Origin: Chloroflexota bacterium | GTDB lineage: Bacteria > Chloroflexota > Dehalococcoidia > SM23-28-2 > JACOUE01 | Direction: 5' to 3' | NCBI GenBank assembly: GCA_016178045.1 | Contig: JACOUE010000006.1 | Span: forward strand, 1,067-65,066 | DNA: 64,000 nucleotides | Part shown: one piece after another, positions 13,176-37,602 of the stretch | How the letters are laid out: each line of letters starts with the position of its first letter | Numbering within the stretch: the stretch's first letter is position 1 | Position numbers and translations under genes: made by a program | The notes under the pieces: model-generated | What the model was told of the DNA's origin: nothing | Seen by the model: only the letters and a program-made list of their open reading frames with translations | Database searches by the model: none

Positions 13176-13186
13176 AGGAGGGACGT

Positions 13187-14800: not shown

Positions 14801-15612
14801 TGGCGGCGAAGGAAGCCCTCCTGGTCGAGCGGGACGGTCACATCGTGACTCTGACGATGAACCGGCCGGAGGTCAAGAACGCCCTGAACCCGGAGATGCT
14901 CTGCCGCCTGGCCGACGCCTGGGACGCCGTCGACGGCGACGACGAGGTCCGCGTGGCGATCCTGACCGGCGCAGCCGACGCCTTCTGCGCCGGCGCCGAC
15001 CTCGACCAGCTGGTTGGGCGCTCGCTCAAGGGCCTGCCGCCGGAGGACGACTTCGAGAAGCGCTGCCGCGACGACCCGGCCGTCATCTTCAAGGGGCTGC
15101 TCCGCAACTACCGCCTGGCGAAGCCACTCGTCGCCGCCGTCGAGGGCCCGTGCATCGCCGGCGGCACGGAGATCCTCCAGGCCGCCGACATCAGGGTGGC
15201 CGGCGAGGGCGCTACCTTCGGGATCTCTGAGGTGCGCTGGGGCCTCTTCCCCATGGGCGGCTCTACCGTGCGGCTCCGGCGGCAGATACCTTACACCATG
15301 GCGATGGAGATACTGCTGACGGGCGACCACATCAGCGCCGCCGAAGCGCAGCGCATCGGCCTGATAGGGCGGGTGGTGCCGAACGGCGGGGCGCTTGCGG
15401 AGGCCCGCCGCATCGCCGAGCGCATCGCCGCCAACGGCCCCCTGGCCGTGCGGAAGGTGAAGCAGGCCGTACAGGAGACGGAGGGCCTGCCCGAGAAGGA
15501 GGCGCTCGAGGTCGAGTTCAGGATCGGGTCGCAAGTCTTCGCCAGTGAGGACGCCCGCGAGGGGCCGCGCGCCTTCAAGGAGAAGCGGGCGCCTCAGTTC
15601 AAGGGACGGTAG
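14800..15612 (+). CDS. Enoyl-CoA hydratase/isomerase (crotonase)
   Basis: GTG at residue 110 of track ORF 14473..15612, overlapping the ligase stop (TAGTG). [29 protein letters not shown] and FCAGADL are crotonase signatures. Confidence 0.85.
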
Positions 15613-15624
15613 AGGGAGGCACAG

Positions 15625-16821
15625 GTGGGACTGGACTTCACGCTCGCGGAAGAGCACGGGATGGTAAGGAACGCCGTTAGGGGTATGCTGGAGAAGTACG
15701 CGCCGCGGCAGCAAGAGCTCAGGGACATGGCCCGCAAAGAGAGGAAGTTCCCGGAGGAGCTGTGGCAGGACTACGCGAAGGTGGGCCTGACAGGCTGCCT
15801 GGTGCCGGAGGAGTACGGCGGCAACAACATGGGCCTGCTGGCCCTCACCCTCGGATTCGAGGAGATAACCGCCGGTGGCTTCTCCCCGGGACTGCTGCTG
15901 GTGACGGCGATGGACTCGGCCTGCATCCTCAAGAACGGCTCGGAGGAGCAGAAGCGGCGCTTTCTCCCCAAGGTGGCCGACGGCTCCTGGAAGCTGTGCT
16001 TCGCCGTCACCGAGCCGGACGCGGGCACCAACACCTTCCGCATGAAGACGGCGGCCCGCCGCAACGGCGATGTCTACCTCATAAGCGGCCAGAAGATGTT
16101 CATCACCGGCGTGGACGTGGCCGACTATATGCTGCTGGTCGCGCGCACCACTACGCTGGAGGAGGCGCAGCAGCAGGGCAAGCCGAAGTCGTACGGGCTG
16201 TCGCTGTTCCTGGTGGATACGAAGTCCAAGGGCATCGAGAAGCAGCCCATCCCCGTCCTGGCCTCGGAGGGGCTGACCCAGTTCCAGCTTTTCCTGGACA
16301 ACGTGGAGGTCCCCGCCGAGAACCTGGTGGGCGAGGAGAACAACGGCACCTTCGCCATGTTCAACTCCCTGAACCCGGAGCGGATCCTTACCGCGGGAAT
16401 ATGCCTGGGGATGGTCCAGTCCGCGTTGAAGAAAGCGGTGGACTACGCGCGGGAGCGCAAGGTGTTCAAGGAGACGCCCATCGGGGCGTACCAGGCCATC
16501 GCCCACCCCCTGGCCGAGGTAAAGATACAGGAGGAGGCCGTCCGCCTTATCACCTACAAGGCGGCCTGGGCCTTTGACCAGGGGCTTAACCCGGCGGAGG
16601 TGGGCACCTACGCCAACATGGCGAAGTTCCTGGCCGCCGACCTCGCGATAAAGGCCGTCGATCACGCCATCGAGACCCACGGCGGCCTGGGCTTCGCCGA
16701 GGAGACGGGCCTGCTCTACCAGTGGATCGGGGCGCGTCTGCTGAAGACGGCGCCCGTCAGCCGCGAGATGATCCTCAACTACGTGGCGGAATGGAACCTG
16801 GGTCTACCGCGGTCATACTGA
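15625..16821 (+). CDS. Acyl-CoA dehydrogenase
   Basis: 398 aa with GAGGGAGG SD. Has CFAVTEPDAGTNT and ISGQKMFITG motifs. Confidence 0.85.
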   Translation: MGLDFTLAEEHGMVRNAVRGMLEKYAPRQQELRDMARKERKFPEELWQDYAKVGLTGCLVPEEYGGNNMGLLALTLGFEEITAGGFSPGLLLVTAMDSACILKNGSEEQKRRFLPKVADGSWKLCFAVTEPDAGTNTFRMKTAARRNGDVYLISGQKMFITGVDVADYMLLVARTTTLEEAQQQGKPKSYGLSLFLVDTKSKGIEKQPIPVLASEGLTQFQLFLDNVEVPAENLVGEENNGTFAMFNSLNPERILTAGICLGMVQSALKKAVDYARERKVFKETPIGAYQAIAHPLAEVKIQEEAVRLITYKAAWAFDQGLNPAEVGTYANMAKFLAADLAIKAVDHAIETHGGLGFAEETGLLYQWIGARLLKTAPVSREMILNYVAEWNLGLPRSY

Positions 16822-20525: not shown

Positions 20526-21151
20526 CTATTTTCCCGCGCTCAGCCTCGAGGGCGCTGCCCGGCGGTCGCGGGCCCAAATCAGGCCGAGGCCCAGGGCCAG
20601 GAGCATGGCGCCCAGTGCCGCCAGAGCGATGTAGTTGCGGATCGGCACGCCCATGGCGTCGACGGCGAGCTGGAGGAGGCCATCGACGAAGGGGTCGGCC
20701 TCCTCCTGGGCGGTGCGAAAGCCGAAGCGCGCCGCCACCGCCCCTGCCAGCGAAGGCAGAGAGCCCACGAGGACGACCGCCCCGAGGACGACGAAGCGGT
20801 TGAAGGAGCGGACGGCGCTCATCACCAGCGCGGCCAGCCCCGCCGAGATAATCCCCAGCACGATCGTGGCTATGACCAGCCTGCTATGCACGTCGTCCCT
20901 TATCAGGCCCAGCCCCCGGTCCACCAGTCCCTGGGTGGAGATCGTCTCGATGTGCCGGCGTGCCGCGGGGTCGCTGGCGCCCGCCGCAGCAGCCGCTCGC
21001 CGGTGCCCCGGGCGGTAAGCTGCGCGGCGTTCAGGGTGAGGAAAAAAGCGGTCAGGCTCAGGGCCAGGAGGACGCCCAGGAGCCACTGCGAGGCCAGCCT
21101 GAGGAGGCCAGAGCGCTCCGGCGGGGCCTCCCGCTGCTCGCCGCCGGTCAT
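20526..21151 (-). pseudogene. Multi-pass membrane protein split across two frames (frameshift, or two short overlapping genes)
   Basis: MTGGEQREAPPERSGLLRLASQWLLGVLLALSLTAFFLTLNAAQL... (tail of track ORF 20903..21724, ATGA-coupled to the RDD gene) turns into an R/P/S/W-rich tail. A natural-looking continuation (ASDPAARRHIETISTQGLVDRGL... plus three TM helices) lies in the frame of ORF 20526..21086. Confidence 0.35.
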
Positions 21152-21651
21152 GGCAACTCGATGACGACGGTATCCGCCAGTAAGTCGTGCAAGGCCTGCC
21201 GCCGGCGGTTCACCGTGGCGACGAGGAAGCCCAGGAAGACCGGCAGCGTTGAAACGACGTAACCGACGAAGCGCACCACGGCGTGGCCCGGGCCCAGAGG
21301 GCCGCCGTCGCTGCGTATCACCTTTATCTTCACCGCCATCTTCCCCACCGTCTGGCCCCGCAATGCCCAGAGGCCGATGTAGTAGAGCGGGACGAACGCG
21401 AACCAGCTCAGGACGATGAGGATCGCCGCGTTGACCGTCGCGTCGGAGGCGTCTTTTTCGCCGAAGCCGGTGCGGAGGAGGATGAGCAGCCCGGCCGCGG
21501 CCGCAAACAGCATGAGGAAGGAGGCGACGATGATGATATCGAGGATGAAGGCGACGAGACGGAGTTCGAGGCTGGCCAAGCGAGGGCTCCGGTGAGCGCC
21601 TGTCTCGCTGGGCCTGGGTGCGGCCACGGCCCCTCCTCGCGCTCGGTCCAT
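21148..21651 (-). CDS. RDD family membrane protein
   Basis: 167 aa. Three hydrophobic helices and the C-terminal RRRQALHDLLADTVVI pattern typical of RDD domains. Confidence 0.75.
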   Translation of the reverse strand: MDRARGGAVAAPRPSETGAHRSPRLASLELRLVAFILDIIIVASFLMLFAAAAGLLILLRTGFGEKDASDATVNAAILIVLSWFAFVPLYYIGLWALRGQTVGKMAVKIKVIRSDGGPLGPGHAVVRFVGYVVSTLPVFLGFLVATVNRRRQALHDLLADTVVIELP

Positions 21652-21717
21652 CAGTTAGCGGGATTATAGCACGGCAGGCGCCGCCGAAAAATCCCGGGAA
21701 TTTCCCGTCCGCAGGGG

Positions 21718-21746
21718 TTGACAAGATGTTACGGGATTGTTATTAT
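21718..21746 (+). promoter_or_regulatory. Near-consensus sigma-70-type promoter (TTGACA-17-TATTAT) for the glycan operon
   Basis: gggTTGACAagatgttacgggattgtTATTATcacg. It sits in the only large non-coding gap of the window, about 390 nt upstream of the first glycan gene. Confidence 0.5.
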
Positions 21747-22040
21747 CACGCGTTCGCTGGAACGCAAATCGATCCCGGCGCCCAAGCCCCTGAGGCCCCC
21801 CGCCTCAGCCCCAGGGACAGCCGCTCTCGATTTTCCCCCCAAGGTCGCGTTTCTCTCCGGCCCTCTTCGTTCCGTCGCCCAGCCTGCCCTTTGCCAGGAG
21901 CAGAGAGGAAAGTTCGGCCGATGCCAGCGCGACCACGTACTCACGGATTCGCAAGCGCCTGCGGGATCGACGTTGGGCGGGTCGGCGTCCCGATCAAGCT
22001 TCGCCATCTAATCCTCGACGTTGTCGCACCCTCCCCCGGC

Positions 22041-22104
22041 GGCGGGCGTGGCGGTTACCGCTCTTCAGAGATGGGGCACCAAATGCGATACCGCCACGTC
22101 CGCC
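22041..22104 (+). promoter_or_regulatory. 15-bp GC-rich helix in the operon leader (structured 5' UTR element)
   Basis: GGCGGGCGTGGCGGT ...34 nt... ACCGCCACGTCCGCC pairs over all 15 positions, with one G-U. It lies about 40 nt before the hddC-like ATG and is followed by a CUUCCUC tract. Smaller hairpins occur upstream (GCGTTCgctgGAACGC, CTGAGGCcccccGCCTCAG). Confidence 0.4.
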
Positions 22105-22142
22105 TTCCTCATCAGCAGCGGGCCCCGGGAAGACCGTAGTCG

Positions 22143-22856
22143 ATGCAGGCCGTCATCTTGGCAGGGGGCAGGGGCACGCGCCTGAGACCGCTCACGGAGC
22201 GGCTGCCCAAGTGCCTGGTGCCGATCGCCGGCCGCCCGTTCCTGGAGTACCAGATCGATCTCCTGCGGGCCTGTGGAATACGCGACATCGTCCTCTGCGT
22301 GGGCCACCTGGGCGGCCAGGTGGTCGACCGCCTGGGCAACGGCGCGCGCTTCGGCGTGCGCCTCGATTATTCGTGGGACGGCGACCGTCTCCTGGGGACG
22401 GCGGGGGCGCTCAAGAACGCCGCTGCCCTCCTGGAGCCGGAGTTCTTCGTGACCTACGGCGACTCCTACCTGGCGCTCGACTACCGCGCTGTGCTGGATT
22501 ACTTCCGGCGGTCCGACAGGCTGGGCCTGATGGTGGTCTGCCGCGAGGGCGGCGGGCGGCTGCCCGGCAACGTGGCGGTCCGCGGCGGCTTGGTCTCCTC
22601 CTACGACAAGGAGACCCCGGCCCCGGGAATGACCCACGTCAACTTCGGCGTCACCCTCCTTCGCAGGCGGGCGCTGGCCCTGATCCCTCACGGCGCTCCT
22701 TACACGGAGGACCAGTTCTACAGCGACCTCATCGGCCGCGGCCAGCTCTTGGCCTACGAGACCGAGCGCTCCTTCTACGAGGTCGGCTCCTGGCAGGGGC
22801 TGGCCCAGTTCGAGAGGCTGATAAGCGTCAGCCCCCTGCTGCAGGCGGGAGCCTAA
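22143..22856 (+). CDS. hddC: Sugar-1-phosphate nucleotidyltransferase, D-glycero-alpha-D-manno-heptose-1-phosphate guanylyltransferase-like
   Basis: MQAVILAGGRGTRLRPLTERLPKCLVPIAGRPFLEY is the G-x-G-T-R-L NTP-transferase signature. About 237 aa, like HddC. Co-operonic with hddA, gmhA and gmhB homologues. Confidence 0.7.
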   Translation: MQAVILAGGRGTRLRPLTERLPKCLVPIAGRPFLEYQIDLLRACGIRDIVLCVGHLGGQVVDRLGNGARFGVRLDYSWDGDRLLGTAGALKNAAALLEPEFFVTYGDSYLALDYRAVLDYFRRSDRLGLMVVCREGGGRLPGNVAVRGGLVSSYDKETPAPGMTHVNFGVTLLRRRALALIPHGAPYTEDQFYSDLIGRGQLLAYETERSFYEVGSWQGLAQFERLISVSPLLQAGA

Positions 22857-22858
22857 CT

Positions 22859-23845
22859 GTGATCGTCAGCAGGACGCCGTTCCGCATCTCGTTCGGCGGC
22901 GGCGGCACCGACCTCCCCGCCTACTACAGCCGCTACGGCGGCTTCATCATCAGCGCCGCCCTCAATCGCTACGTCTACATCGCCCTCAACCGCCGCTTCG
23001 AGGACAGCATCCGGGTCAGCTACTCCCAGACCGAGATCGTCGAGGGCCCCGACCAGGTCCAACACCCCATCGTCCGGGAGGCCCTCCGCTTCCTGGACCT
23101 GGACGACGCCCTGGAGATAGTCTCCATCGCCGACCTGCCGGCCAACACCGGGCTGGGCAGCTCGTGCAGCTTCACCGTCGGCCTGCTCAACGCCCTCCAT
23201 GCCCTGAAGCGGGAGCACGTGTCGCTGGAGGAGCTGGCCGAGGAGGCGTGCCACCTGGAGATCGAGCGCCTGGGCGAGCCCATCGGCAAGCAGGACCAGT
23301 ACATCGCGGCGCTGGGCGGTATCACCTGCCTGGAGATCGACCGCGAGGGAGGAGTGCGGGCGGCGCCCGCCTCCGTCCCCAAGGAGGTGCTGGACGAACT
23401 GGAGGAGCGGCTCCTCCTCTTCTACACGGGACTCAAGCGCCGTGCCTCGGACGTGCTGGAGCCGCAGAGCCGCGCTGCCCGTGAAGATGAGCCGAAAGTC
23501 GTATCCGCCCTGCACGCCATCAAGGACATCGGCCACGAGGTCCAGGATTCGCTGGAGCGGGGCGAGCTGGACCGCTTCGGCAAGCTCATGGACCTCCACT
23601 GGCAGACGAAGAAGAACCTGTCCGACCGGGTGACCACCGACGAAGTCAACCGCTGGTACGACCTGGCCATGGCCGGTGGGGCCCTGGGCGGCAAGCTGAT
23701 GGGGGCCGGCGGTGGCGGCTTCTTCATGTTCTACTGCCCGAACGGCTCGAAGAACGAGGTGCGTAGAGCCCTCGCCGCCGAGGGCCTGAAGGAAGTCCGC
23801 TTCGGCATCGACTTCGAAGGGTCGAAGGTGCTGATCAACCTGTAG
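22859..23845 (+). CDS. hddA: GHMP sugar kinase, D-glycero-D-manno-heptose-7-phosphate kinase-like
   Basis: GTG at residue 217 of track ORF 22211..23845, 2 nt after the previous stop. Has RTPFRISFGGGGTDLPAYY, PANTGLGSSCSF (GHMP motif II) and GAGGGGFFMFY. Confidence 0.75.
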   Translation: MIVSRTPFRISFGGGGTDLPAYYSRYGGFIISAALNRYVYIALNRRFEDSIRVSYSQTEIVEGPDQVQHPIVREALRFLDLDDALEIVSIADLPANTGLGSSCSFTVGLLNALHALKREHVSLEELAEEACHLEIERLGEPIGKQDQYIAALGGITCLEIDREGGVRAAPASVPKEVLDELEERLLLFYTGLKRRASDVLEPQSRAAREDEPKVVSALHAIKDIGHEVQDSLERGELDRFGKLMDLHWQTKKNLSDRVTTDEVNRWYDLAMAGGALGGKLMGAGGGGFFMFYCPNGSKNEVRRALAAEGLKEVRFGIDFEGSKVLINL

Positions 23846-23848
23846 GTC

Positions 23849-24475
23849 GTGATGGTCGCCAGGGTCGAGACGCTTATCGACAGCTACTTGCAGACCCTCG
23901 CCGGGGTCGCCCTGGGCCTGCCGCGGGACGTGCTGGAGCGGGCGGCGGACCTGCTGTACGAGTGCTGGCGCCGGGAAGGGACGGTGTTCGTCATCGGCAA
24001 CGGCGGCTCCGCCTCCACCGCCACTCACCTGGCGTGCGACCTGGCGAAGGGGACGATAGTGCCCGGCCGCCGACGCCTGCGGGCGCTGTCGCTGGCGGAC
24101 AACGTTCCCCTCGTCAGCGCCTGGACCAACGACGGCGGCTTCGGGGGCCTGTTCGCCGAGCAACTGGAGCCGTGGATCAGCGCAGACGACGCGCTGGTGG
24201 TCCTTTCCGTCCACGGCGGCGCCGGCCACGCGGATGCCGGGCCGTGGTCCCAGAACCTGCTGCGGGCGGCGGCCCTCGCCCGGCAGCGCGGCGCCAGGGT
24301 GATCGGCCTCTCGGGCTTCGAGGGCGGACCCCTGGCCGGGCTCGCCGACGTGGCGGTCGTCGTGCCCGTGGAGGCCGAGCCGCTCGGCACTCCCATTGTA
24401 GAGTCGCTGCACGCGGCGATATGCCATCTCCTGTGCCTGGCCCTGCGCCAGCGCATCGCCGAGGCGGACGAGTAG
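23849..24475 (+). CDS. gmhA: SIS-domain phosphoheptose isomerase
   Basis: 208 aa. VFVIGNGGSASTATHLACDL and VLSVHGG...NLLRAAALARQRGARVIGLSG are typical GmhA/SIS motifs. Confidence 0.8.
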   Translation: MMVARVETLIDSYLQTLAGVALGLPRDVLERAADLLYECWRREGTVFVIGNGGSASTATHLACDLAKGTIVPGRRRLRALSLADNVPLVSAWTNDGGFGGLFAEQLEPWISADDALVVLSVHGGAGHADAGPWSQNLLRAAALARQRGARVIGLSGFEGGPLAGLADVAVVVPVEAEPLGTPIVESLHAAICHLLCLALRQRIAEADE

Positions 24476-24488
24476 GAAGGGAGGAGAG

Positions 24489-25184
24489 ATGGAACTGTTC
24501 CTGGACACGGCCGACCGGAACGAGATCCGCCGCTGGCTGGCGTACGGCCTGGTCGACGGCGTGACCACCAACCCCAGCATCATGCTCCGCGACGGCGCCC
24601 TGGACGCGGAACGGACGGCCCGAGAGATCGCCGCCCTCATCGCGCCCCGGCCGCTCAGCGTGGAGGTGACCACCAATGACCCCGACGAGATGGTCCGTCA
24701 AGCCCGCGTCATGGCCGCCTGGGCGGAGAACATTGTGGTCAAGATCCCCGTAATCAACGAGTACGGCGAGCCGTGCTACCGGGCCGTGCGGGCGCTGGAC
24801 GGGGAAGGCATCCGCGTGAACATGACGGCCTGCCTTTCCTTCGGCCAGGCCGCCCTTGCCGCTAAGGCCGCCGCCACCTACGTCAGCATTTTTGCGGGCC
24901 GTGTCGCCGACGAGGGCCACGACGCCCCCGCCCTGGTCCGGGAGGTGGTCGAGTGGCTCCGGCTCTGGGGCTATCCCGCCAAGCTCATCGTGGGGAGCGT
25001 TCGCGGCCCGATTGACATAAAGGAGGCGGCCCTGGCCGGCGCCCACGTCATAACCGTGCCCCCGCCGGTCCTGGACAGATTCGTGGAGCACCGCTATAGC
25101 CGCGAGACGGTGCGCGGGTTCAATGAGGACGCCCGCACGGCGCTGGCCCGCATGGAGCAGCTGAAGAAGGAGGTGGCGGCATGA
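24489..25184 (+). CDS. Short (type 3B) transaldolase / fructose-6-phosphate aldolase family
   Basis: 231 aa with GGGAGGAG SD. Has MELFLDTADRNEIRRW...DGVTTNPSI and the Schiff-base context VVKIPV. Confidence 0.85.
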   Translation: MELFLDTADRNEIRRWLAYGLVDGVTTNPSIMLRDGALDAERTAREIAALIAPRPLSVEVTTNDPDEMVRQARVMAAWAENIVVKIPVINEYGEPCYRAVRALDGEGIRVNMTACLSFGQAALAAKAAATYVSIFAGRVADEGHDAPALVREVVEWLRLWGYPAKLIVGSVRGPIDIKEAALAGAHVITVPPPVLDRFVEHRYSRETVRGFNEDARTALARMEQLKKEVAA

Positions 25185-25735
25185 GCTTGCTCGTGGCCCT
25201 CGACCGGGACGGCACGGTCATCGAGGAGCGGCCGTACCTGTCCGACCCGAGGCAGGTGGCGCTGCTGCCCCGTGCCGCCGAGGGGCTGCTGGCCCTGCGC
25301 GAGCAGGGGTTCAGGGTGGCCCTCGTTACCAACCAGTCGGGAGTGGGCAGGGGCTACTTTGACCTGCCCACCCTCGACCGTATCCACCGCCGGCTCTTCG
25401 ACCTGCTGGCCGGGGCCGGCGCCGCCGTGGACGGCGTCTACTTCTGCCCTCACGCGCCCGACGAGGGGTGCCGCTGCCGCAAGCCGGAGACCGGCCTGCT
25501 GGAGCGGGCCGCCTCCGACTTCGCCGCCGCGGACTGCTTCGTGGTGGGCGACAAGGAGTGCGACATCGGGATGGGGCTGCGCTCGGGAGCGACGACGGTG
25601 CTGGTGCGCACCGGCTACGGCCGCCAGACGGAGAAGGCGCGGAGGGTACGGCCGCACTACGTGGTCGACGACCTTCTGGCGGCGGCGGCGGTAATCAATC
25701 GCGCCGCTCTGTACCGGAAAGCGAGGGTAGCGTGA
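25181..25735 (+). CDS. gmhB: D-glycero-D-manno-heptose-1,7-bisphosphate phosphatase (HAD-IIIA)
   Basis: 184 aa. Has the DRDGT nucleophile motif, VTNQSGVGRGYF and the Zn-loop CPHAPDEGCRCRKP. ATGA overlap with the transaldolase gene. Confidence 0.8.
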   Translation: MSLLVALDRDGTVIEERPYLSDPRQVALLPRAAEGLLALREQGFRVALVTNQSGVGRGYFDLPTLDRIHRRLFDLLAGAGAAVDGVYFCPHAPDEGCRCRKPETGLLERAASDFAAADCFVVGDKECDIGMGLRSGATTVLVRTGYGRQTEKARRVRPHYVVDDLLAAAAVINRAALYRKARVA

Positions 25736-26403
25736 ACGCACTGGTCGGCTGGGAGGCAGAGGTCAGGCGCGCCCTCCGGGACGGCGCCGAAGTGAAGCTG
25801 CGCACGGCGGACGCCTGCGCGGCGGCGATTGCCAGGGCGGCAGAGGCCATTGCCGCCTGCCTTAGCATGGGTGGCAAGCTGCTGACCTGCGGGAACGGCG
25901 GCTCGGCTGCCGACGCCCAGCACATCGCCGCCGAGCTGGTGGGCCGTCTGAGCCCCAAGTCGTTGCGGCCGGCCCTTGCCGCCGTGGCCCTGACCACTGA
26001 TACGTCGGTGCTCACCGCCCTCGGCAACGATTTCGGGTTCGAGGTAGCGTTCCAGCGGCAGGTGGAGGCGCTGGGCCACCCCGGCGACGCCCTCCTCGCT
26101 ATCAGTACCAGCGGCCGCTCGGAGAACGTCCTGCGGGCGGTCTCGGCCGCCCGCGGCAAAGGCCTGGTCACCATCGCCCTGAGCGGGGGCGACGGCGGCG
26201 CCCTGACCGGGGCCGCCGACATCGCCGTCGTCGTCCCCAGCGATGACGCTCAGCGGGTGCAGGAGGCCCACATCGCTATCGGCCATATCGTCTGCTCCCT
26301 GGTGGAGCGCATCCTCTTCGACGAGGGAAAGGACCGGACATGGGATCTGGCGCGGGAAGCTGTCCCCGGGGCCGGCGTCATGGGCCGCTCCCCCGGACGG
26401 TGA
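25732..26403 (+). CDS. gmhA: Second SIS-domain phosphoheptose isomerase paralogue
   Basis: GTG at residue 89 of track ORF 25468..26403 (GTGA overlap). Has LLTCGNGGSAADAQHIAAEL and AISTSGRSENVLRAVSAARGKGLVTIALSG. Confidence 0.75.
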   Translation: MNALVGWEAEVRRALRDGAEVKLRTADACAAAIARAAEAIAACLSMGGKLLTCGNGGSAADAQHIAAELVGRLSPKSLRPALAAVALTTDTSVLTALGNDFGFEVAFQRQVEALGHPGDALLAISTSGRSENVLRAVSAARGKGLVTIALSGGDGGALTGAADIAVVVPSDDAQRVQEAHIAIGHIVCSLVERILFDEGKDRTWDLAREAVPGAGVMGRSPGR

Positions 26404-26404
26404 C

Positions 26405-28351
26405 GTGCAGAGTGGACGTCGGGCGCGCCGGGGCCGGACGAGCCGAGTCCGCCTGCTCGTCGCGGGTCTCGTCGCTGTGGCCATTGTCGCCTACGTGGCC
26501 ATTACCGGCACCCGTTTCCTGCTGGCCTACGGGGAGCTGAAGGAAGCGAAGGAGCTGATGCTTTCGGCCGAATCGACGCTGCGAAAGGACGGTCCGGACG
26601 CCTCGCCCGACACCCTGGACGGGGCGCAGGTCCGCCTCCTGGCCGCGCGGGCGAAGCTTGACTCCGCCCGCCGTCTGCTGGACGGCGACCCGCTGCTGCG
26701 GGCCGCCGAGCGGCTTCCCGCGCTGGGGCCGCAGTTGTCGGCCGTGCGGTCGTTCATCGACATCGGCCGCGAAGGGGCGGACGTCGGCCTGGCCGGTATC
26801 GAAGCGCTCCGAAGCTACGATGCGGTCCGGGCAGACAAGAGACCGCCTCTGGGCGAGCGGGTTGTGGCGTTCCTGGAAGCCGTCCGGCCGGAGATGGCCT
26901 CGGCGGAGGCAAGCCTGGCGCTGATACAGGAGGAACGCTTGGCGATGGAGGGGGACTGGCTGCTCCCTCCCCTCGCCGGGCTGCTCGAAGAGGTGGACGG
27001 GCGCCTCCCGCGGCTCCAGCGGTCGCTGGAGAGGTACCGCGACGGGCAACGGGCGGCGCCCGGACTCCTCGGCTTCCGGGGGGGCCGCCGCTACCTGGTG
27101 CTGGGCCTGGACAACACGGAGCTCATGCCCGGCGGCGGGCTCATCGGCTCCTACGGCGTGATCACCCTCCAGAGGGGCCGCCTGCGCGACCGCACCTTCG
27201 GCGAGGTTGAGGACGTGATCGACCGCTGGCAGGAGCGGAGCGGCGGCGAGTACATCGAGCCGCCGGGCCCCCTCAAGCGGTACCTGCTGCGCGACTGGAC
27301 CTGGAACTTCGGCATTGCCGACTGGTCGCCCGACTTCCCGACCTCCGCCCGGCAGGCGCTCTTCTTCTACGAGCGCTCGGGGGCGGAGCCCGTCGATGGC
27401 GTCATCGCCCTCGACTTCGCCACCCTGGAAGGACTCCTCGAAGTGCTGGGCCCGGTGCGCATCGAGCGGTACGGCGTGACCGTGGACGCCGAGAACGTGA
27501 CGGAGGAGGTCCTGGCCCGCATCGGCCGGCCGCTGCGTCCCGGGCAGGGCGACCACGCCTTCGCCCGCGCCGTCGCCCGCCGCGTGATCGACGAGGCGAT
27601 GGACGCCGACGGGCAGGAGTGGCAGCCGCTGCTGCGGAGGCTGGAGCGTCTGGCCGAGGAGAAGCACCTCTTCGTCTACTCCGGCGACGCGGGCATCGAA
27701 CGGTCCCTGGGCCGGCTGGGCTGGGCGGGCGAGGTGAGGGAGGAGCCGGGCGACTACCTGATGGTGGTGAACGCCAGCGTCCACAGCACCAAGCTCAACC
27801 TGGCCCTGCGCGAGAGGTTCGATGTGCGGGTGCGGCTGGACGCCGCGGGCAACGCCCATCACGGTGTCACCCTCCGCTACGAGAATCGCCTCGACGAGTG
27901 GGCCGCCGGCCGCGATCCCCAGTTCGTCTCCGACCTGATGCTTTCCGGTTTCTACGGCGGATACGTGCGCGTGCTCACGCCGAAAGAATCACGCTTACGG
28001 GAAGTGCGGCTGAACGGAGAGGCCGCCGGGGTGGAGGAGGTGACGCAGGAGGCGGGCAGGCTCTCCTTCGGGCGCTACGTGCCGCTTCCCAGGGACGCCC
28101 GAGCCAGCCTCGAGTTCGCCTACCTGAGCCCCGGCGTCGTCGAGGCTTTGGGGGGCGTCCGCACGTACCGGCTGCTCCTCCAGAAGCAGCCGGGGACGGG
28201 GGCGATCCCCCTGAGGCTGACCGTCGAGCTGCCAGCGGGAGCTTCGGTGACGAGCGTCACGCTCGGCGGTCGTGAGCTGCCGCCCGGCCGGCTGAGGATA
28301 GAGACGGACCTTTCGAGGGACAGGGAGCTGGTCGTGGAGTACGAGCCTTAG
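26405..28351 (+). CDS. DUF4012-like membrane-anchored extracytoplasmic protein
   Basis: GTG at residue 55 of track ORF 26243..28351. Arg-rich N-terminus, one TM helix (LLVAGLVAVAIVAYVAI), then a roughly 600-aa domain containing YLVLGLDNTELMPGGGLIGSYGVI, which I recognise as the DUF4012 core. Confidence 0.6.
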   Translation: MQSGRRARRGRTSRVRLLVAGLVAVAIVAYVAITGTRFLLAYGELKEAKELMLSAESTLRKDGPDASPDTLDGAQVRLLAARAKLDSARRLLDGDPLLRAAERLPALGPQLSAVRSFIDIGREGADVGLAGIEALRSYDAVRADKRPPLGERVVAFLEAVRPEMASAEASLALIQEERLAMEGDWLLPPLAGLLEEVDGRLPRLQRSLERYRDGQRAAPGLLGFRGGRRYLVLGLDNTELMPGGGLIGSYGVITLQRGRLRDRTFGEVEDVIDRWQERSGGEYIEPPGPLKRYLLRDWTWNFGIADWSPDFPTSARQALFFYERSGAEPVDGVIALDFATLEGLLEVLGPVRIERYGVTVDAENVTEEVLARIGRPLRPGQGDHAFARAVARRVIDEAMDADGQEWQPLLRRLERLAEEKHLFVYSGDAGIERSLGRLGWAGEVREEPGDYLMVVNASVHSTKLNLALRERFDVRVRLDAAGNAHHGVTLRYENRLDEWAAGRDPQFVSDLMLSGFYGGYVRVLTPKESRLREVRLNGEAAGVEEVTQEAGRLSFGRYVPLPRDARASLEFAYLSPGVVEALGGVRTYRLLLQKQPGTGAIPLRLTVELPAGASVTSVTLGGRELPPGRLRIETDLSRDRELVVEYEP

Positions 28352-28361
28352 GAGGTCGAGC

Positions 28362-29164
28362 ATGTCGTTCTGGCGAGGAAAGCGAGTAGTGGTCACCGGC
28401 GGGGCCGGCTTCATCGGCTCCCACGTGGTCGAGGCGCTCCGCCGCAAGGACTGCGCCGACGTCTTCGTGGTGCGCAGCCGCGACTACGACCTCACCCGCG
28501 AGGAGAACGTCGTCCGCCTGCTCGACGAGACGGAGCCCGACATCGTCTTCCACCTGGCGGGACTGGTGGGCGGGATAACGGCGAACAAGGAGCGTCCCGC
28601 CGAGTTCTTCTACCAGAACCTGACCATGGGAACCTTCATGCTCCGCAGTCGCTCGCCTACTACGAGCAGTACGGCTTCGTCTCCAGCATCTGCGTGCTGG
28701 CCAACGTCTACGGGCCGAACCACACCTTCGACCTCCACTACTCGCCGGTGGTGCCGGCCCTCATCCGCAAGAGCGTTGAGGCGGTGGAGAACAACAGCGA
28801 CACCATCACCGTCTGGGGCAGCGGCCGCCCGACCCGTGACTTCATCTACGTGGGCGATGTCGCCCGCGGCCTCCTCCTGGCGGCGGAGAAGTACGAACGT
28901 CCGGCCCTGGTCAACATCTCCTCCGGCAAGGAGATAACCATCCGCGAGCTGGCGGAGCTGCTGGCCGAGCTGACCGGCTTCCACGGCCGCATCGTCTGGG
29001 ACTCCGGCCACCCCGACGGAGCTCTCCGTCACTGCCTCGACCCCAGCAAGGCGAAGCGGGAGCTCGGCTTCGAGGTCGAAGTGGGCCTGCGCGAAGGGCT
29101 GGAGCGCACCATCGCTTGGTACAAGGCCAACCGCGAGCAGGCCCGGGTAAGGATCACGGTGTGA
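28362..29164 (+). pseudogene. GDP-L-fucose-synthase-like epimerase/reductase with an internal deletion of about 50 codons plus a frameshift
   Basis: N-part (track ORF 28362..28937) is good through ...FFYQNLTMGTFMLRS, then degenerates. C-part (frame of ORF 28694..29164) resumes at ..SLAYYEQYGFVSSICVLANVYGPN. The intact paralogue at 36631 shows that [14 protein letters not shown]...YGVAKRVLA (catalytic Ser and YxxxK) is missing. Confidence 0.7.
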
Positions 29165-29166
29165 GC

Positions 29167-30387
29167 ATGAAGAAGTGTCGCATCTGCGAGGGCCGTAACC
29201 TCCACAAGTTCCTCTCGCTGGGGAGGCAGCCCCACTGCAACCGCTTCCTGCGTGAGCAGGACCTCGCCCTGGACGAGCCTGCCTACCCGCTGGACCTCTA
29301 CTTCTGCGATGACTGCGCCCTGGTGCAGCTGGGGTACGTCGTTCCGCCGGAGAAGATGTTCCGCGACTACCCCTACGTCTCCGGGACGACGGCCACCCTT
29401 CCCGCGCACTTTCAGCGCCTGGCCCAGGAGATCGTCGCCCGCTTCGACGTGCCGCGCGGCTCGCTGGTAGCCGACATCGGCAGCAACGACGGCACGTTCC
29501 TGCGTGGCTTTCAGCAGCTGGGGATGCGCGTCCTGGGGTTCGACCCGGCCGTGAACATCGCCGCGCTGGCCAACGAGGCGGGGATCGAGACGGTGCCGGA
29601 GTTCTTCGATCGCGACGTATCCGCCAGGGCGGCGGCGGAAAAGGGGAAGGCGAAGGTGATCACCGCCGCCGGCGTCTTCTACCACGTGCCCGACCTCCCC
29701 GACTTCGTCGAGGGGGTGAGGGCGCTGCTGGCGGACGACGGGATCTTCGTGGTGCAGGCGATCTACCTGCTGGACATGATCGAGAAGACGTCCTTCGACA
29801 ACGTTTACCACGAGCACCTCTGCTACTACTCCCTCAAGCCCCTCACCGTCCTGTTCAACCGCTTCAACATGGAGGTGTTCGAGGTGGAGCGCGCCCCCAT
29901 CCACGGCGGCTCCATCATCGTCTACGTCCGCCAGGGGATCAGCCGGGGCCGGAAGGAGTCGGTAGAGGCCCTGCTGGCGGAGGAGGCGCGTCGCGGCCTG
30001 TACTCGCTGGAGACGTATCAGGAGTTCGCCTGCCGGGTGGCGGGCGTCAGGGAGAAGCTCGTCTCTCTCCTCCGCGACCTGCGGGCGCAGGGGAAGGGGA
30101 TCGCCGCTTACGGGGCGCCGGCCAAGGGGAACACCATGCTCAACTACTGCCGCATCGGGCCGGACGTCCTGAGGTACGCCGCCGAGAAGAACCCCCTCAA
30201 GCAAGGGCTGTACACGCCGGGCATGCACATCCCGGTCATTGCCGAGGAGAAGGCGCGGGAGGACCCGCCGGACTACTACCTGGTCCTCCCCTGGAACTTC
30301 CTCGACGAGTTCCTGGAGAAGGAGCGCGAGTTCCGGGAGAGGGGCGGCCGCTTCATCGTTCCCATTCCCGAGCCGCACATCGTCTGA
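29167..30387 (+). CDS. SAM-dependent NDP-sugar C-methyltransferase (TylCIII-like)
   Basis: Trimmed by 17 residues to MKKCRICEGRNLHKFLSLGRQPHCNRFL (N-terminal Zn-ribbon-like Cys cluster CRIC...CDDC). Has DIGSNDGTFL (SAM motif I) and the C-terminal C-methyltransferase domain (YAAEKNPLKQGLYTPG). Confidence 0.75.
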   Translation: MKKCRICEGRNLHKFLSLGRQPHCNRFLREQDLALDEPAYPLDLYFCDDCALVQLGYVVPPEKMFRDYPYVSGTTATLPAHFQRLAQEIVARFDVPRGSLVADIGSNDGTFLRGFQQLGMRVLGFDPAVNIAALANEAGIETVPEFFDRDVSARAAAEKGKAKVITAAGVFYHVPDLPDFVEGVRALLADDGIFVVQAIYLLDMIEKTSFDNVYHEHLCYYSLKPLTVLFNRFNMEVFEVERAPIHGGSIIVYVRQGISRGRKESVEALLAEEARRGLYSLETYQEFACRVAGVREKLVSLLRDLRAQGKGIAAYGAPAKGNTMLNYCRIGPDVLRYAAEKNPLKQGLYTPGMHIPVIAEEKAREDPPDYYLVLPWNFLDEFLEKEREFRERGGRFIVPIPEPHIV

Positions 30388-30406: not shown

Positions 30407-31345
30407 ATGCGGATACTGGTCACGGGTGGCGCCGGCTACGTGGGCTGCGTTCTCGTGCCGCTGCTACTGGCGGCGGGACACCGGGTTGTCGTTCTGGACA
30501 GCCTGCGCAAGGGCGGCCTCGGGCTCCTCCCCTGGGCCGGCCACCCCCGCCTTGAGACCGTGGTCGGCGACGTCCGTGACGCTGAGGCCGTGCGGGGCGC
30601 GCTCAAGGACGCCGACGCGATCATGCACCTGGCCGCCATCGTGGGCTATCCGGCCTGCCAGAAGGACCCCTGGCTGGCCCGGACGACCAACTTGGACGGC
30701 ACCGAGAACCTCATCCGCCAGCGGTCACCGCAGCAGCCCATCATCTACCCCTCCAGCCTGAGCAACTACGGCACGGTGGTCGACCAGGTGTGCACGGAGG
30801 AGATGGAGCCGAAGCCCATCACCCTCTACGGCGTCACCAAGCAGGAGGCGGAGAAGCGCCTGCTCGAGGCCGGGAACGCCGTCGTCTTCCGGCCGGCCAC
30901 CGTGTTCGGCCTCTCGCCGCAGATGCGTCTCGACCTCCTCTTCAACGAGTTCGTCTACAAGGCGCTGCGCGACCGTCACCTCGTGGTGTACCAGCCGAAC
31001 TTCGTGCGGGCGTTCATCCACGTCCGCGACTTCGCCCGCGCTTTCCTCTTCGCCCTCGACCACCTGGAGGAGATGCGGGGGCAGGTCTACAACCTCGGCG
31101 CCGACTCCCTGAACCTGACGAAGGGCGAGCTGGCGAAGCGCATCCGCCGCCGCCTCGACTTCGTCCTGCGCATCTCAAACAACGGCGAAGACCCCGACAA
31201 GCGCAACTACCGGGTGGACTTCTCCAAGCTGACGCGACTGGGCTTTTCAGTGGAGACCGGCATCGACGAAGGGATCGACGAGCTGGTGCGGGGGCTGCCG
31301 CTTATAGAAGTCGACAACCCCTTCAGTAACGTCGCCTACACCTAG
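30407..31345 (+). CDS. NAD-dependent sugar-nucleotide epimerase/dehydratase (extended SDR)
   Basis: Trimmed to MRILVTGGAGYVGCVL, after GAAGGAGG. Has the YGVTK (YxxxK) motif. Confidence 0.75.
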   Translation: MRILVTGGAGYVGCVLVPLLLAAGHRVVVLDSLRKGGLGLLPWAGHPRLETVVGDVRDAEAVRGALKDADAIMHLAAIVGYPACQKDPWLARTTNLDGTENLIRQRSPQQPIIYPSSLSNYGTVVDQVCTEEMEPKPITLYGVTKQEAEKRLLEAGNAVVFRPATVFGLSPQMRLDLLFNEFVYKALRDRHLVVYQPNFVRAFIHVRDFARAFLFALDHLEEMRGQVYNLGADSLNLTKGELAKRIRRRLDFVLRISNNGEDPDKRNYRVDFSKLTRLGFSVETGIDEGIDELVRGLPLIEVDNPFSNVAYT

Positions 31346-31354: not shown

Positions 31355-32371
31355 GTGGGGTTCTTCGAAGGCAGGAAGGTTCTCGTCACCGGCGCCGCCG
31401 GCTTCATCGGCACGAACCTGGTGGAGCGGCTGGTGCGGGACGGCGCCGTCGTACGGGCCGCCGACAGCTTCGAGCGGACGGGCCGGACCCATGTGGCGTC
31501 CCTCGTGGACGCGGCGGAGGTATTGGAGGGCGACCTCCGGGACCGTGACAGCTGCCTGGAGGCCTGCCGCGGCGCCGAGGTCGTTTTCCACTTGGCCGCC
31601 CGCGCCGGCAGCTCCGATTACTACCGCCGCCACCCGGCGACCGTGCTGAACGAGAACCTGGTCATCGACGCCCAGGTGCTGGAGGCGGCCCGCCGCCGCG
31701 GCGTGGAGCGCTACTTCTACACGAGCAGCGTCTTCGTCTACCCGCGCCAGTACCAGATGGGACCCGAGCCGCGGCCGCTCCGGGAGGAGGACGCCCTGCC
31801 CGCTTCCCCGCCCCTCTCCTACGGCTGGGCGAAGCTGATGGGCGAGAAGGCCTTGGAGTACGCCGTCGGCGAGGACCACTCGTTCCGGGCCGCCGTTTTT
31901 CGCCTGATAGGTGCTTACGGCCCCCACCAGGACCTCGACGACGAACGCGGTTCGGTAATACCGGTCCTCATCCGCAGGGCCATTGAGTATCCCGCCCAAC
32001 CTTTCGCCATCCGGGGCGCCGGCCAGGAGCTGCGGTCTTTTTGCTACATCAGCGACGTCATCGACGCCATGCTCCTCGCTGTCGAGAAGCTGGACGGCGT
32101 GCGCCTGCTGGGCCCACTCAACGTCGGGAGCGAGGAGAGCGTCCCCATTATCAACGTCGTCGAGGAGATAGTGCGAATGTCGGGGAAGAGCATACCCATC
32201 GTCCAGCTGCCCGCGGCCGGCCCGGTCTGGAGCCAGGCCGTCGACTGCTCCCGGGCCAGGGAGGCCCTGGACGGCTGGACACCGAAGGTGCCGCTGGCGG
32301 AAGGCGTCCGCCGCACCTTCGCCTACGTCGAGGCCGTCCTCGAGCGCCGGCAGGTGGCCGATGTCCGATAA
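31355..32371 (+). CDS. NAD-dependent sugar-nucleotide epimerase/dehydratase (extended SDR)
   Basis: 338 aa. Has VLVTGAAGFIGTNLV, YTSS and YGWAK (YxxxK) motifs. Confidence 0.75.
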   Translation: MGFFEGRKVLVTGAAGFIGTNLVERLVRDGAVVRAADSFERTGRTHVASLVDAAEVLEGDLRDRDSCLEACRGAEVVFHLAARAGSSDYYRRHPATVLNENLVIDAQVLEAARRRGVERYFYTSSVFVYPRQYQMGPEPRPLREEDALPASPPLSYGWAKLMGEKALEYAVGEDHSFRAAVFRLIGAYGPHQDLDDERGSVIPVLIRRAIEYPAQPFAIRGAGQELRSFCYISDVIDAMLLAVEKLDGVRLLGPLNVGSEESVPIINVVEEIVRMSGKSIPIVQLPAAGPVWSQAVDCSRAREALDGWTPKVPLAEGVRRTFAYVEAVLERRQVADVR

Positions 32372-33407
32372 CGGCGGCAAGTTCGTACGGGCGCGGGCCC
32401 CCCTGCGCATCAGCTTTGTGGGCGGGGGCACCGACCTCCCCGCCTACTACACGCGGTTCGGAGGGGCGGTGCTCGCCGGCACGGTCAACCGCTACACCTA
32501 CGTGACCCTGGCCCCCCGCGAGGACGACTACGTCAGCATCTCGTCGCTGGACTTCGACGTCACCGTCAAGTACCACGTCGACGAGGAGCCCATCTACAAC
32601 GACGCGCTGAAGCTGGCCCAGGCGGCGGTAAGGCGCCTCGTCCCCCGTCATAGCAACTCCCACGGCTTCGACCTGTACATCCAGAGCGACGCCCCCGCCG
32701 GCAGCGGCCTGGGCGGCTCCACGGCGCTGGTGCTCGCCATCCTCGGGGCGATCATGAAGTTCAAGGGCATCGTGCTCGACAACCAGACGCTGGCCGAGCT
32801 CGCCTACACCATCGAGCGCTTCGACCTGGGCATCAGCGGCGGCAAGCAGGACCAGTACCAGGTCACTTTCGGCGGCTTCAACCTCATCGAGTTCAACCGG
32901 GAGGCCGTGTCGGTGAACCCGCTGGCCGTGTCGAGGGTCATCCTCAACGACCTCGAGCACCACCTGCTGATCTGCTACACCGGCAAGACCCACACCTCGG
33001 CCCAGATCACCGACAAGCTCGACGACTACGTCCGCAGCGAGCGGCCCGCGACCATCGAGGGCCTGCGCCTGCTGCGCGGGCTGGTGTACGACCTGAAGGA
33101 CGCCCTCCTGGAGGGCAGGCTGCTGGACGCGGCCTACATGCTGGACTGCGCCTGGCAGCTGAAGCTGAAGCTGAATCCCCCGGAAGTGACCGACCCCTTC
33201 ATCAACGACCTGTACGAGGAGGCGAGGAAGAGCGGCGCCCTGGGCGGCAAGCTGCTCGGCGCCGGGGGCGGCGGCTTCCTGCTTCTCTTCTGCGAGTCGA
33301 GCAAGAAACGCGCGGTGCGGGAGAGACTGGAGGCCATGGGCTGCCAGTTCGCCCCCTTCTCTTTCGTCGAAGAGGGGCTCGGCGCCTGGTGGAGTAACCA
33401 GCTGTGA
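32361..33407 (+). CDS. Second GHMP sugar kinase (HddA paralogue)
   Basis: 348 aa. Has RAPLRISFVGGGTDLPAYY, PAGSGLGGSTAL and GAGGGGFLLLF. Clearly paralogous to the kinase at 22859. Confidence 0.75.
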   Translation: MSDNGGKFVRARAPLRISFVGGGTDLPAYYTRFGGAVLAGTVNRYTYVTLAPREDDYVSISSLDFDVTVKYHVDEEPIYNDALKLAQAAVRRLVPRHSNSHGFDLYIQSDAPAGSGLGGSTALVLAILGAIMKFKGIVLDNQTLAELAYTIERFDLGISGGKQDQYQVTFGGFNLIEFNREAVSVNPLAVSRVILNDLEHHLLICYTGKTHTSAQITDKLDDYVRSERPATIEGLRLLRGLVYDLKDALLEGRLLDAAYMLDCAWQLKLKLNPPEVTDPFINDLYEEARKSGALGGKLLGAGGGGFLLLFCESSKKRAVRERLEAMGCQFAPFSFVEEGLGAWWSNQL

Positions 33408-36634: not shown

Positions 36635-37602
36635 GTGATCTGGTGGGAAAGCGCGTTGCGGTCACTGGAGGCGCCGGCTTTCTCGGGAATCACGTGGTGG
36701 AGCGACTGCGGGGGCGCGGGTGCCGGGACGTATTCGTGCCGCGCAGCGCCGAATACGACCTCCGCGATGGCAACGCCGTCGCCCGCGTGTACGAAAAGGC
36801 GAGGCCGCAGGTGGTTCTGCACCTGGCGGCCAGAGTGGGTGGCATCGGCTACAACAAGGAGCGCCCGGCGGAGACTCTGGTCGACAACCTGCTGATGGGC
36901 CTGCAGGTGATGGAGCAGGGACGGCGCTTCGGGGTGGAGAAGCTGGTGGCCGTCAGCTCCGTCTGCGCCTACCCGAAGTATGCCCCCCTCCCCTTCCAGG
37001 AGGGCGACCTGTGGGAGGGCTACCCGGAGGAGACCAACGGCCCCTACGGCGTCGCCAAGCGGGTGCTGGCGCTCCAGGCCCGGGTCTACCGCCAGCAGTA
37101 CGGATTCAACGCCGTCGCTCTCCTGCTGTCGAACCTCTACGGCCCCGGCGACAACTTCGACCCGTCTTCTTCGCACGTCATCCCGGCCCTCATCCGGCGC
37201 TGCCTGGAAGCGGCGGACGAGGGCCGGGAGAGCGTCGAGGTGTGGGGGAGCGGCAGCGCCTCCCGCGAGTTCCTCTACGTCGGGGACGCCGCCGAGGCCG
37301 TCGTCCTGGCCGCCGAGAGCTACGAGGGGCGGGAGCCCATCAATATCGGCAGCGGCGAGGAGGTCACCGTCCGTCAGCTGGCGGAGACCATCGCCCGGTT
37401 TACCGGTTTCCGGGGCCGCATCGAGTGGGACGCCTCGAAGCCCGACGGCCAGCCCCGCCGCAGCATCGACACGACCCGGGCGCAGTTTGAGCTGGGGTTC
37501 AAGACGAAGACGCCGCTGGAGGAGGGCCTGCGCAAGACGATCGAGTGGTACCTGGGGCAGCGGGAGACGGTAGCGGCACAGGTGGAAGGGAGAAGCGGGT
37601 GA
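36631..37602 (+). CDS. GDP-L-fucose synthase-like NDP-4-keto-6-deoxysugar 3,5-epimerase/4-reductase (intact paralogue)
   Basis: Trimmed by 28 residues to [19 protein letters not shown] (ATGA overlap). Has SSVCAYP, YGVAK and the [10 protein letters not shown] motifs typical of the Fcl/ColC family. Confidence 0.8.
   Translation: [323 protein letters not shown]

Follow-up and report, generated by a model that had tools for sequence, protein, structure and literature searches.

Why a set of genes that looks built to activate a heptose should contain a transaldolase and two isomerases of the GmhA family is the question raised by six genes found at positions 22143-26403 (plus strand) of a 64,000-nucleotide stretch of DNA, referred to here as the window. 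The source organism is a Chloroflexota bacterium of the class Dehalococcoidia whose genome (2.03 Mb in 85 contigs, 90% complete) has 68-71% G+C. A sequence-only reading of the six-gene block had taken it for a GDP-heptose module in which the embedded transaldolase provides sedoheptulose-7-phosphate. We propose instead, with a probability of about 0.5, that the block combines two routes within an operon for a surface glycan, namely a branch resembling LmbR, LmbN, LmbP, LmbK and LmbO of lincosamide biosynthesis, which probably leads to an octose, and a canonical heptose branch. The six genes, and a second HddA-like kinase gene that lies beyond the block and belongs to the same picture, are the following.

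22143-22856, plus strand: NT, sugar-1-phosphate nucleotidyltransferase with an HddC/LmbO-like role (237 aa; Pfam NTP_transferase, 74 bits)
22859 (GTG)-23845, plus strand: K1, GHMP anomeric sugar kinase, HddA/WcbL/LmbP-like and TAL-linked (328 aa)
23849-24475, plus strand: SIS-1, divergent ketose/aldose-phosphate isomerase of the GmhA family with a remodelled phosphate loop and an LmbN-like role (208 aa)
24489-25184, plus strand: TAL, short TalC-type transaldolase of the non-Pro S[ILV]F.GR subfamily with an LmbR-like role (231 aa; Pfam TAL_FSA, 159 bits)
25181-25735, plus strand: HAD, HAD-IIIA sugar-bisphosphate phosphatase, GmhB/LmbK-like (184 aa)
25732 (GTG)-26403, plus strand: SIS-2, canonical GmhA, that is, a sedoheptulose-7-phosphate isomerase (223 aa)
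32361-33407, plus strand: K2, second and more canonical HddA-like GHMP kinase (HddA model, 224.6 bits)

All six open reading frames of the block are present on the plus strand, and the family scans agree with the families that had been assigned to them from the letters. The two diverged GmhA motifs quoted at that time, GNGGSASTATHLACDL and GNGGSAADAQHIAAEL, are also correct. None of the six proteins reaches the equivalog cut-off of NCBIfam (0/6).

Three genes of the TAL_FSA family were found in the genome: a long form on another contig, a short form of the canonical type that is flanked by pyrG and rho (locus L002, positions 1251-1910), and the TAL of the window. A gene for transketolase is also present. 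Because the genome holds two other transaldolases, TAL is a dedicated pathway enzyme and not a stray housekeeping gene. TAL scores 170 bits against TIGR00875 (cut-off 246) and is 40% identical to the short housekeeping transaldolase of its own genome. Residues Asp6, Glu59, Lys85, and Phe135 are invariant in the alignments of the subfamily and align with the corresponding residues of the Thermotoga maritima and Thermus transaldolases. From work on TalB and the fructose-6-phosphate aldolase FSA, we take it that FSA carries Gln and Tyr at the positions where transaldolases carry Glu and Phe. An FSA-like aldolase reading of TAL, with dihydroxyacetone as the donor, is ruled out by Glu59 and Phe135, which stand in place of the Gln and Tyr of FSA (1L6W).

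The housekeeping short transaldolases from T. maritima (1VPX), Thermus (1WX0), B. subtilis (3R8R), and T. acidophilum (3S0C) belong to the same fold family as TAL, are of the same length, and are about 40-45% identical to it; they share with it the Schiff-base Lys, the Asp, the Glu, and the transaldolase-type Phe. TAL nevertheless falls in a separate clade that is recognized by three markers. The canonical S-P-F-V-G-R is replaced by S-I-F-A-G-R, so that the subfamily reads S[ILV]F.GR against SPF.GR, with Ile, Leu or Val for the Pro; 3-4 aa are inserted behind the Schiff-base Lys, after VKIP (VKIPVINEYGEPC); and TACLS is found instead of TLIFS. The maximum-likelihood tree of 78 short transaldolases is parted into canonical and non-Pro sequences by a branch of length 1.01 with 99% support from the Shimodaira-Hasegawa-like approximate likelihood ratio test (SH-aLRT). 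All 24 of the canonical SPF.GR sequences (24/24), including the housekeeping copy from the same genome, are on one side of this branch, and all of the non-Pro sequences are on the other. The earlier suggestion of a dedicated transaldolase is thus upheld, since TAL is not the only copy in the genome and lies across a well-supported branch from the canonical short enzymes. The subfamily differs from the housekeeping enzymes in its surroundings as well, for it sits in sugar-nucleotide cassettes and is found fused to the enzymes of the cassette.

The two isomerases are about 37% identical to each other and differ in active-site residues and in a loop, which bears out the proposal that they are functionally distinct and not redundant. 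SIS-2 scores 212 bits against NF010546 and 192 bits against TIGR00441, slightly under both cut-offs, and 175-178 bits against the GmhA structures from C. jejuni (1TK9) and B. pseudomallei (2XBL), with about 55-60% identity as counted on the printed alignment. It has the GmhA residues His61, Glu65 (in AAEL), Gln172, and His180 and the loop STSGRSEN, and is canonical by this measure; SIS-1 is not. SIS-1 scores 81 bits against TIGR00441 (cut-off 209) and is about 30% identical to the solved GmhAs. On the printed alignment, in E. coli GmhA numbering, SIS-1 keeps His61 and His180, and has Asp for Glu65 and Glu for Gln172. Its loop retains Ser119 and Ser124 and carries nine extra residues, SVHGGAGHADAGPWSQN against STSGNSAN. 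We take loop 119-124 of E. coli GmhA (Ser119-Ser124) to be the part that binds the 7-phosphate of sedoheptulose-7-phosphate in the published structures.

The C-terminal tail of SIS-2 extends about 25 aa past the solved GmhA structures. The length noted earlier for this tail is correct. The tails of the orthologues are shorter (about 15 aa) and vary in length and sequence, so that the tail has no obvious significance and was rejected as a functional feature.

An insertion in the phosphate loop is found in every TAL-linked isomerase examined, that is, in those encoded next to a TAL of the subfamily (about 30 non-redundant loci, plus the fusion proteins described below). The insertion is of two types, one of nine residues (SVHGGxGxxxAGxWSQN) and one of six residues (GVGGGAG...SVGGGxxxxxxSxN). 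The loop is short in relatives of SIS-1 with the same Asp that occur at loci lacking TAL, namely those on Jannaschia plasmid p1, at two Streptomyces loci, and at loci from Ktedonobacteraceae. At L045 and at L014, the second of two isomerase sets likewise has an Asp-type enzyme with no loop insertion. Two sets of 120 homologues each showed that the length of the loop is uniform within each isomerase family, being 8 residues in one and 14 in the other. Two members from each family, chosen by loop type and the length of their contigs alone, were then spot-checked. Both genes with an inserted loop (2/2) have TAL, GHMP kinase, HAD, and NT genes within 6 kb, and neither of those with a short loop (0/2) has a TAL gene within 9 kb.

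L045, from a metagenome-assembled genome (MAG) of the Chloroflexia (positions 6931-15900), and L014 each carry two isomerase-kinase sets side by side, of which one is linked to TAL and has the insertion. The other set has a short-loop Asp-type isomerase with a nucleotidyltransferase of its own, and the arrangement parallels the SIS-1/K1 and SIS-2/K2 pairs of the window. At two of the loci from Ktedonobacteraceae (L099 and L100), a short-loop isomerase and a GHMP kinase are encoded beside ATP-sulfurylase, adenosine-5'-phosphosulfate (APS) kinase, inositol-1-phosphate synthase, and a gene of the phosphodiesterase/sulfatase family; this block may serve a sulfated or inositol-linked heptose glycan.

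A profile of the TAL subfamily was searched against 1.84 billion cluster representatives and returned 1132 clusters at E <= 1e-30. The best 150 of these were inspected for fusions. The fusions found, together with one at a locus containing TAL, are listed below.

P0259: TAL-HAD fusion, 410 aa
P0368: HAD-TAL fusion, 430 aa
P0409: TAL-HAD-SIS fusion, 620 aa, which might be a read-through gene call
P0304: TAL-GHMP kinase fusion, 562 aa
L095, positions 11633-12886: HAD::SIS fusion beside TAL, in Streptomyces sp. NPDC054784 (contig JBSHAX010000022.1)

These fusions show that TAL acts in one pathway with the phosphatase, the isomerase, and the kinase. The order of the genes in the Streptomyces cassette is Gly_transf_sug, short-chain dehydrogenase/reductase (SDR), TAL, GHMP kinase, HAD::SIS, carbamoyltransferase, GT2, and SDR, with an NT gene nearby. 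Among 20 TAL representatives that looked actinomycete, this cassette was found and the lmb cluster was not. Another cassette, at L096, adjoins a gene for a TrwC relaxase, which suggests that it may be mobile.

Homologues that are 63-74% identical to TAL are plentiful in metagenome bins of Chloroflexota and Dehalococcoidia. A scan of 185,579 species genomes gave about 55 loci with a TAL of the subfamily, all from uncultured organisms. The hosts are Dehalococcoidia and other Chloroflexota, Acidobacteriota (Terriglobia, Acidiferrales), Planctomycetota, Glassbacteria, a Bacillota MAG, and several lineages of the candidate phyla radiation (CPR). When the proteins of the window were used in tblastn searches, about 30 of these approximately 55 genomes were found to encode K1, SIS-1, and HAD, and in some cases NT, at a distance of at most 10 kb. 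The order NT-kinase-SIS-TAL-HAD-SIS is repeated in related contigs from Dehalococcoidia, and the arrangement of the six genes is therefore not due to chance. The core order is either NT-K1-SIS1-HAD-TAL or that of the window in Chloroflexota and CPR, and TAL-SDR-K1-HAD-SIS1 in Acidobacteriota. SIS-2 and K2 are confined to the nearest relatives (L006/L011, L007, L010), where they are found together. Of 200 genomes sampled evenly from the phylum, none besides the window's own contained a TAL of the subfamily, the best other match being 46% identical; the cassette is thus patchy among species representatives and not typical of a lineage.

Fourteen genomes with a TAL of the subfamily were tested further. 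A canonical transaldolase is also present in 10/14, and a K1 homologue lies beside an isomerase gene in 13/14, although in five cases this pair is 17-75 kb, or a contig, away from TAL. The one genome of the 14 that has neither K1 nor any gene of the SIS_2 family is G014, whose subfamily TAL (contig C12, positions 22319-22989; L057) is split into two frames. The split may be due to decay of the gene once the pathway had been lost, or to an error in sequencing.

The TAL subfamily has a tree branch of its own, is fused to enzymes of the cassette, and co-varies with the remodelled phosphate site of the isomerase. These properties argue that TAL makes a non-standard ketose phosphate, probably a longer one, and not sedoheptulose-7-phosphate. 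The octose is favored because the sole characterized pathway with exactly this set of enzymes is the lincosamide sugar route. As Sasaki 2012 and Lin 2014 are cited in PMC4351081, PMC5854111, and PMC12945683, LmbR uses fructose-6-phosphate or sedoheptulose-7-phosphate as the donor and ribose-5-phosphate as the acceptor to form D-glycero-D-altro-octulose-8-phosphate. In the S. lincolnensis pathway outlined in PMC4351081, PMC5854111, and PMC12945683, the isomerase LmbN, the GHMP kinase LmbP, the HAD phosphatase LmbK, and the guanylyltransferase LmbO then lead to the GDP-octose. The same five classes of enzyme are encoded together in the window (22143-25735, contiguous). The homologues described for the celesticetin pathway of S. 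caelestis, CcbR/N/P/K/O, are given as 222/202/323/185/232 aa, and TAL/SIS-1/K1/HAD/NT are 231/208/328/184/237 aa. TAL, moreover, is a short TalC-type enzyme present as a dedicated extra copy, and SIS-1 is a divergent relative of GmhA. The two systems differ in that the genes of the window belong to a surface-glycan operon of the Wzx type in a member of the Chloroflexota and not to an antibiotic cluster, that SIS-1 has no carrier-protein domain, and that a canonical GmhA (SIS-2) and a second kinase (K2) have been added. No tailoring set of the LmbM/L/Z/S type was found here, only generic SDR epimerases and DegT aminotransferases.

The other known system of relevance is the route to GDP-D-glycero-alpha-D-manno-heptose for the S-layer glycan of Aneurinibacillus thermoaerophilus, which consists of GmhA, HddA, GmhB, and HddC. 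Related heptose routes are those of Burkholderia pseudomallei (WcbL/WcbN/WcbM), Campylobacter jejuni, and Yersinia pseudotuberculosis. The block resembles this pathway in having a canonical GmhA (SIS-2), two kinases whose nearest structures are those of WcbL/HddA (K1 and K2), a GmhB-like phosphatase (HAD), and a nucleotidyltransferase with HddC among its best solved relatives (NT). Besides the scores of its proteins, which lie under the NCBIfam equivalog cut-offs, three features set it apart from the pathway. Four enzymes suffice there to start from the sedoheptulose-7-phosphate of the cellular pool without a transaldolase, whereas TAL is embedded here and conserved with the cassette; SIS-1 deviates from GmhA at Glu65, Gln172, and the phosphate loop; and two isomerases and two kinases are accompanied by a single phosphatase and a single NT. 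The opinion that heptose loci do not as a rule contain a transaldolase is correct for the characterized ones. The same five classes of enzyme make up the octose sub-pathway of the lincosamides, and among uncultured bacteria the cassette is common.

A search for published heptose or octose loci with a transaldolase in polysaccharide biosynthesis found none beyond the work on lincosamides. Searches of plasmids with tblastn gave only housekeeping fsa genes and isomerase genes with an uninserted loop, and LmbN was not among the matches of protein searches seeded with the Streptomyces isomerases. A "phosphoheptose isomerase" from S. hygroscopicus (P0147) was considered as a possible HygP and was dropped, its neighborhood being no heptose cluster.

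The proposed pathway would proceed as follows. In the first branch, TAL would move the C3 dihydroxyacetone unit from fructose-6-phosphate or sedoheptulose-7-phosphate onto an aldose phosphate, most likely ribose-5-phosphate, which would give D-glycero-D-altro-octulose-8-phosphate as with LmbR. SIS-1, with its enlarged phosphate loop, would convert the ketose phosphate to the aldose phosphate, K1 would phosphorylate C1, HAD would strip the terminal phosphate, and NT would form the nucleoside diphosphate (NDP) sugar, possibly with GDP. In the second branch, which would be an addition of this lineage, SIS-2 and its proposed partner K2 would turn sedoheptulose-7-phosphate from the pool into heptose-1,7-bisphosphate, and this compound would pass through the same HAD and NT. 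The downstream SDRs, C-methyltransferase, and aminotransferases would tailor the NDP-sugars, and the GT4 glycosyltransferases, Wzx, and the DUF2206 protein would assemble and export the glycan.

Several points weigh against this proposal. The likeness to the lincosamide pathway is one of gene set, described functions, and protein sizes; by Pfam, positions 22143-53548 hold no counterpart of LmbL (similar to UDP-glucose dehydrogenase) or of LmbZ (Gfo/Idh/MocA). The link between the loop insertion and TAL holds across phyla and in the fusions, but the counts ignore shared ancestry. In 4/14 genomes (two from CPR and two others) no TAL_FSA gene was found besides the TAL of the cassette, which may there perform ordinary transaldolase chemistry as well, and in some Dehalococcoidales the TAL of the subfamily is solitary, far from the kinase and the isomerase. 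The enlarged loop of SIS-1, as predicted from the alignment, is compatible with a longer substrate and is no proof of one. The length of the carbon chain is not readable from sequence and is inferred, as are the acceptor, the order of the steps, the nucleotide, and, purely so, the common use of HAD and NT by both branches.

It could be argued that the product of all six genes is GDP-D-glycero-alpha-D-manno-heptose, or one of its epimers, with TAL boosting the supply of sedoheptulose-7-phosphate from fructose-6-phosphate and erythrose-4-phosphate and SIS-1 being a divergent sedoheptulose-7-phosphate isomerase, perhaps with the other configuration at C2 from that of SIS-2. We think this unlikely, though by no means negligible. 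The nearest characterized relatives of K1, HAD, SIS-2, and NT are indeed WcbL/HddA, GmhB, GmhA, and HddC, TAL retains all of the canonical catalytic and phosphate-binding residues of a transaldolase, and standard chemistry is possible in those four genomes where no other TAL was found. Sedoheptulose-7-phosphate, however, is an ordinary intermediate of the pentose phosphate pathway and a product of transketolase, and the genome can already make it with its transketolase and two other transaldolases. An enzyme that merely boosts a flux would not be expected as a paralogous subfamily that extends across phyla, occurs in fusions, and co-varies with the loop of an isomerase. Loci with uninserted isomerases manage without TAL, and a second route through sedoheptulose-7-phosphate would be redundant, given the canonical GmhA and the HddA-like K2 in the same operon. 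The supply of sedoheptulose-7-phosphate, which the sequence-only reading had put forward as the function of TAL, is thus improbable in view of the transketolase and the two other transaldolases and because TAL tracks the isomerases with inserted loops.

The co-evolution of TAL with these isomerases would also be explained by another non-standard ketose phosphate, such as a nonulose from a hexose-6-phosphate, an epimer of the octulose from arabinose-5-phosphate, or a deoxy or otherwise modified ketose, or by the use of an unusual donor, the cassette then activating the resulting sugar. There is precedent for short transaldolase paralogues that have acquired a new substrate specificity, as in the sulfofructose transaldolase BmSF-TAL (8BC3/8BC4), and the 6- and 9-aa types of insertion could mirror different substrates. 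We nevertheless give such products a rather low likelihood. The only characterized pathway that combines a transaldolase, an isomerase, a GHMP kinase, a HAD phosphatase, and a nucleotidyltransferase yields an octose from ribose-5-phosphate, which is the obvious abundant acceptor, and the core cassette has no conserved gene that would supply an unusual one. That TAL is simply a housekeeping enzyme of the pentose phosphate pathway placed here by chance, beside isomerases that are simple duplicates, is suggested by the family assignment and is very hard to credit: there are two other transaldolases in the genome, the synteny crosses phyla, the tree is split, genes of the cassette are fused, and the isomerases diverge in their overall identity as in their active-site and loop features.

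We give somewhat less than even odds to a wider interpretation. Straight-chain C8 aldoses may have been overlooked in the cell-envelope glycans of Chloroflexota, Acidobacteriota, Planctomycetota, CPR/Patescibacteria, and some actinomycetes, where they would be made by a lincosamide-like route that starts with a transaldolase and is marked by a TAL with S[ILV]F.GR and an isomerase with a loop insertion of 6-9 residues; in the present organism, two isomerase-kinase pairs with one phosphatase and one NT in common would give rise to an NDP-octose as well as an NDP-heptose. Should the cassette yield an NDP-octose or some other sugar with more than seven carbons, then sugars of a class known only from the lincosamide antibiotics would routinely form part of the surface glycans of several phyla that have received little study, and databases would consistently mislabel such genes as "heptose pathway" or simply "transaldolase". 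Such loci can be picked from metagenomes at little cost by two signatures, the motif of TAL and the inserted loop of the isomerase. The cassette at L095 is carried by a culturable Streptomyces, which opens the way to genetics and glycan chemistry.

NT is the only nucleotidyltransferase in the window. The NCBIfam model that it matches best is that for MurU (110 bits), followed by HddC (NF049965, 67 bits against a cut-off of 300), both far under their cut-offs, and the best of the solved structures are MurU (4Y7T, 86 bits) and HddC from Y. pseudotuberculosis (5XHW/6JQ8, 71 bits). The nucleotide of its product is possibly GDP, although NT scores higher against MurU than against HddC. K1 is matched best among the NCBIfam models by HddA (NF049969) with 166.6 bits, and K2 scores 224.6 bits against the same model, the cut-off being 600; the two kinases are 33% identical. 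The structures that K1 matches are WcbL (4USK/4USM), 3K85, and HddA from C. jejuni (4N3O), with about 150 bits, and homologues of K1 (39-71% identity) adjoin TAL in more than 30 loci. HAD scores 152.5 bits against the GmhB model NF006506 (cut-off 178) and exceeds the cut-offs of TIGR01656 and TIGR01662. A second HAD-IIIA sugar-bisphosphate phosphatase was looked for in the window and none was found, so that two isomerases and two kinases are present there with one HAD and one NT.

The six genes stand at the head of an operon for a cell-surface glycan, of which they are the part that activates the sugars; the operon is not a cluster for a secondary metabolite. Neighboring genes within the block abut or share 1-4 nt, and no terminator-like site was found inside it. 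The block is preceded by a strong predicted promoter, the sole match of its kind in 21000-29500, where 0.3 would be expected by chance; a leader of about 395 nt (21747-22142) separates it from NT, the first gene of an operon of about 31 kb. The promoter and the genes beyond the block, assigned with Pfam, are given below.

21718-21746, plus strand: predicted sigma-70-type promoter, TTGACA-17-TATTAT, with 11/12 matches to the consensus
26405-28351, plus strand: DUF4012 protein (Pfam DUF4012, 86 bits; orthologues of 643-645 aa in L006 and L007)
28362-29164, plus strand: disrupted Fcl-like SDR, in two frames (28362-28937 and 28694-29164)
29167-30387, plus strand: TylCIII-like C-methyltransferase
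30407-31345, plus strand: SDR
31355-32371, plus strand: SDR
33404-34582, plus strand: DegT aminotransferase
34543-53548, plus strand: rest of the glycan operon, with five to six GT4 glycosyltransferases, S-adenosylmethionine (SAM) and FkbM methyltransferases, a second DegT-family protein, an Fcl-like SDR, and a short-chain dehydrogenase
40600-41982, plus strand: Wzx-type flippase
48231-50456, plus strand: DUF2206 membrane protein

The gene for the DUF4012 protein is a conserved neighbor of the cassette in the nearest relatives. As called from the ATG at 26243, its reading frame overlaps that of SIS-2 by 160 nt; the GTG at 26405, two bases past the stop codon of SIS-2, is likely the actual start because it is favored by the lengths of the orthologues. 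The gene that follows, similar to Fcl (GDP-fucose synthase), measures 803 nt, a length not divisible by 3, and falls about 50 aa short of the 317-aa orthologues that it has in L006 and L007. Either this gene is a pseudogene or the assembly is in error here. A paralogue of this SDR is present in intact form at 36631-37602.

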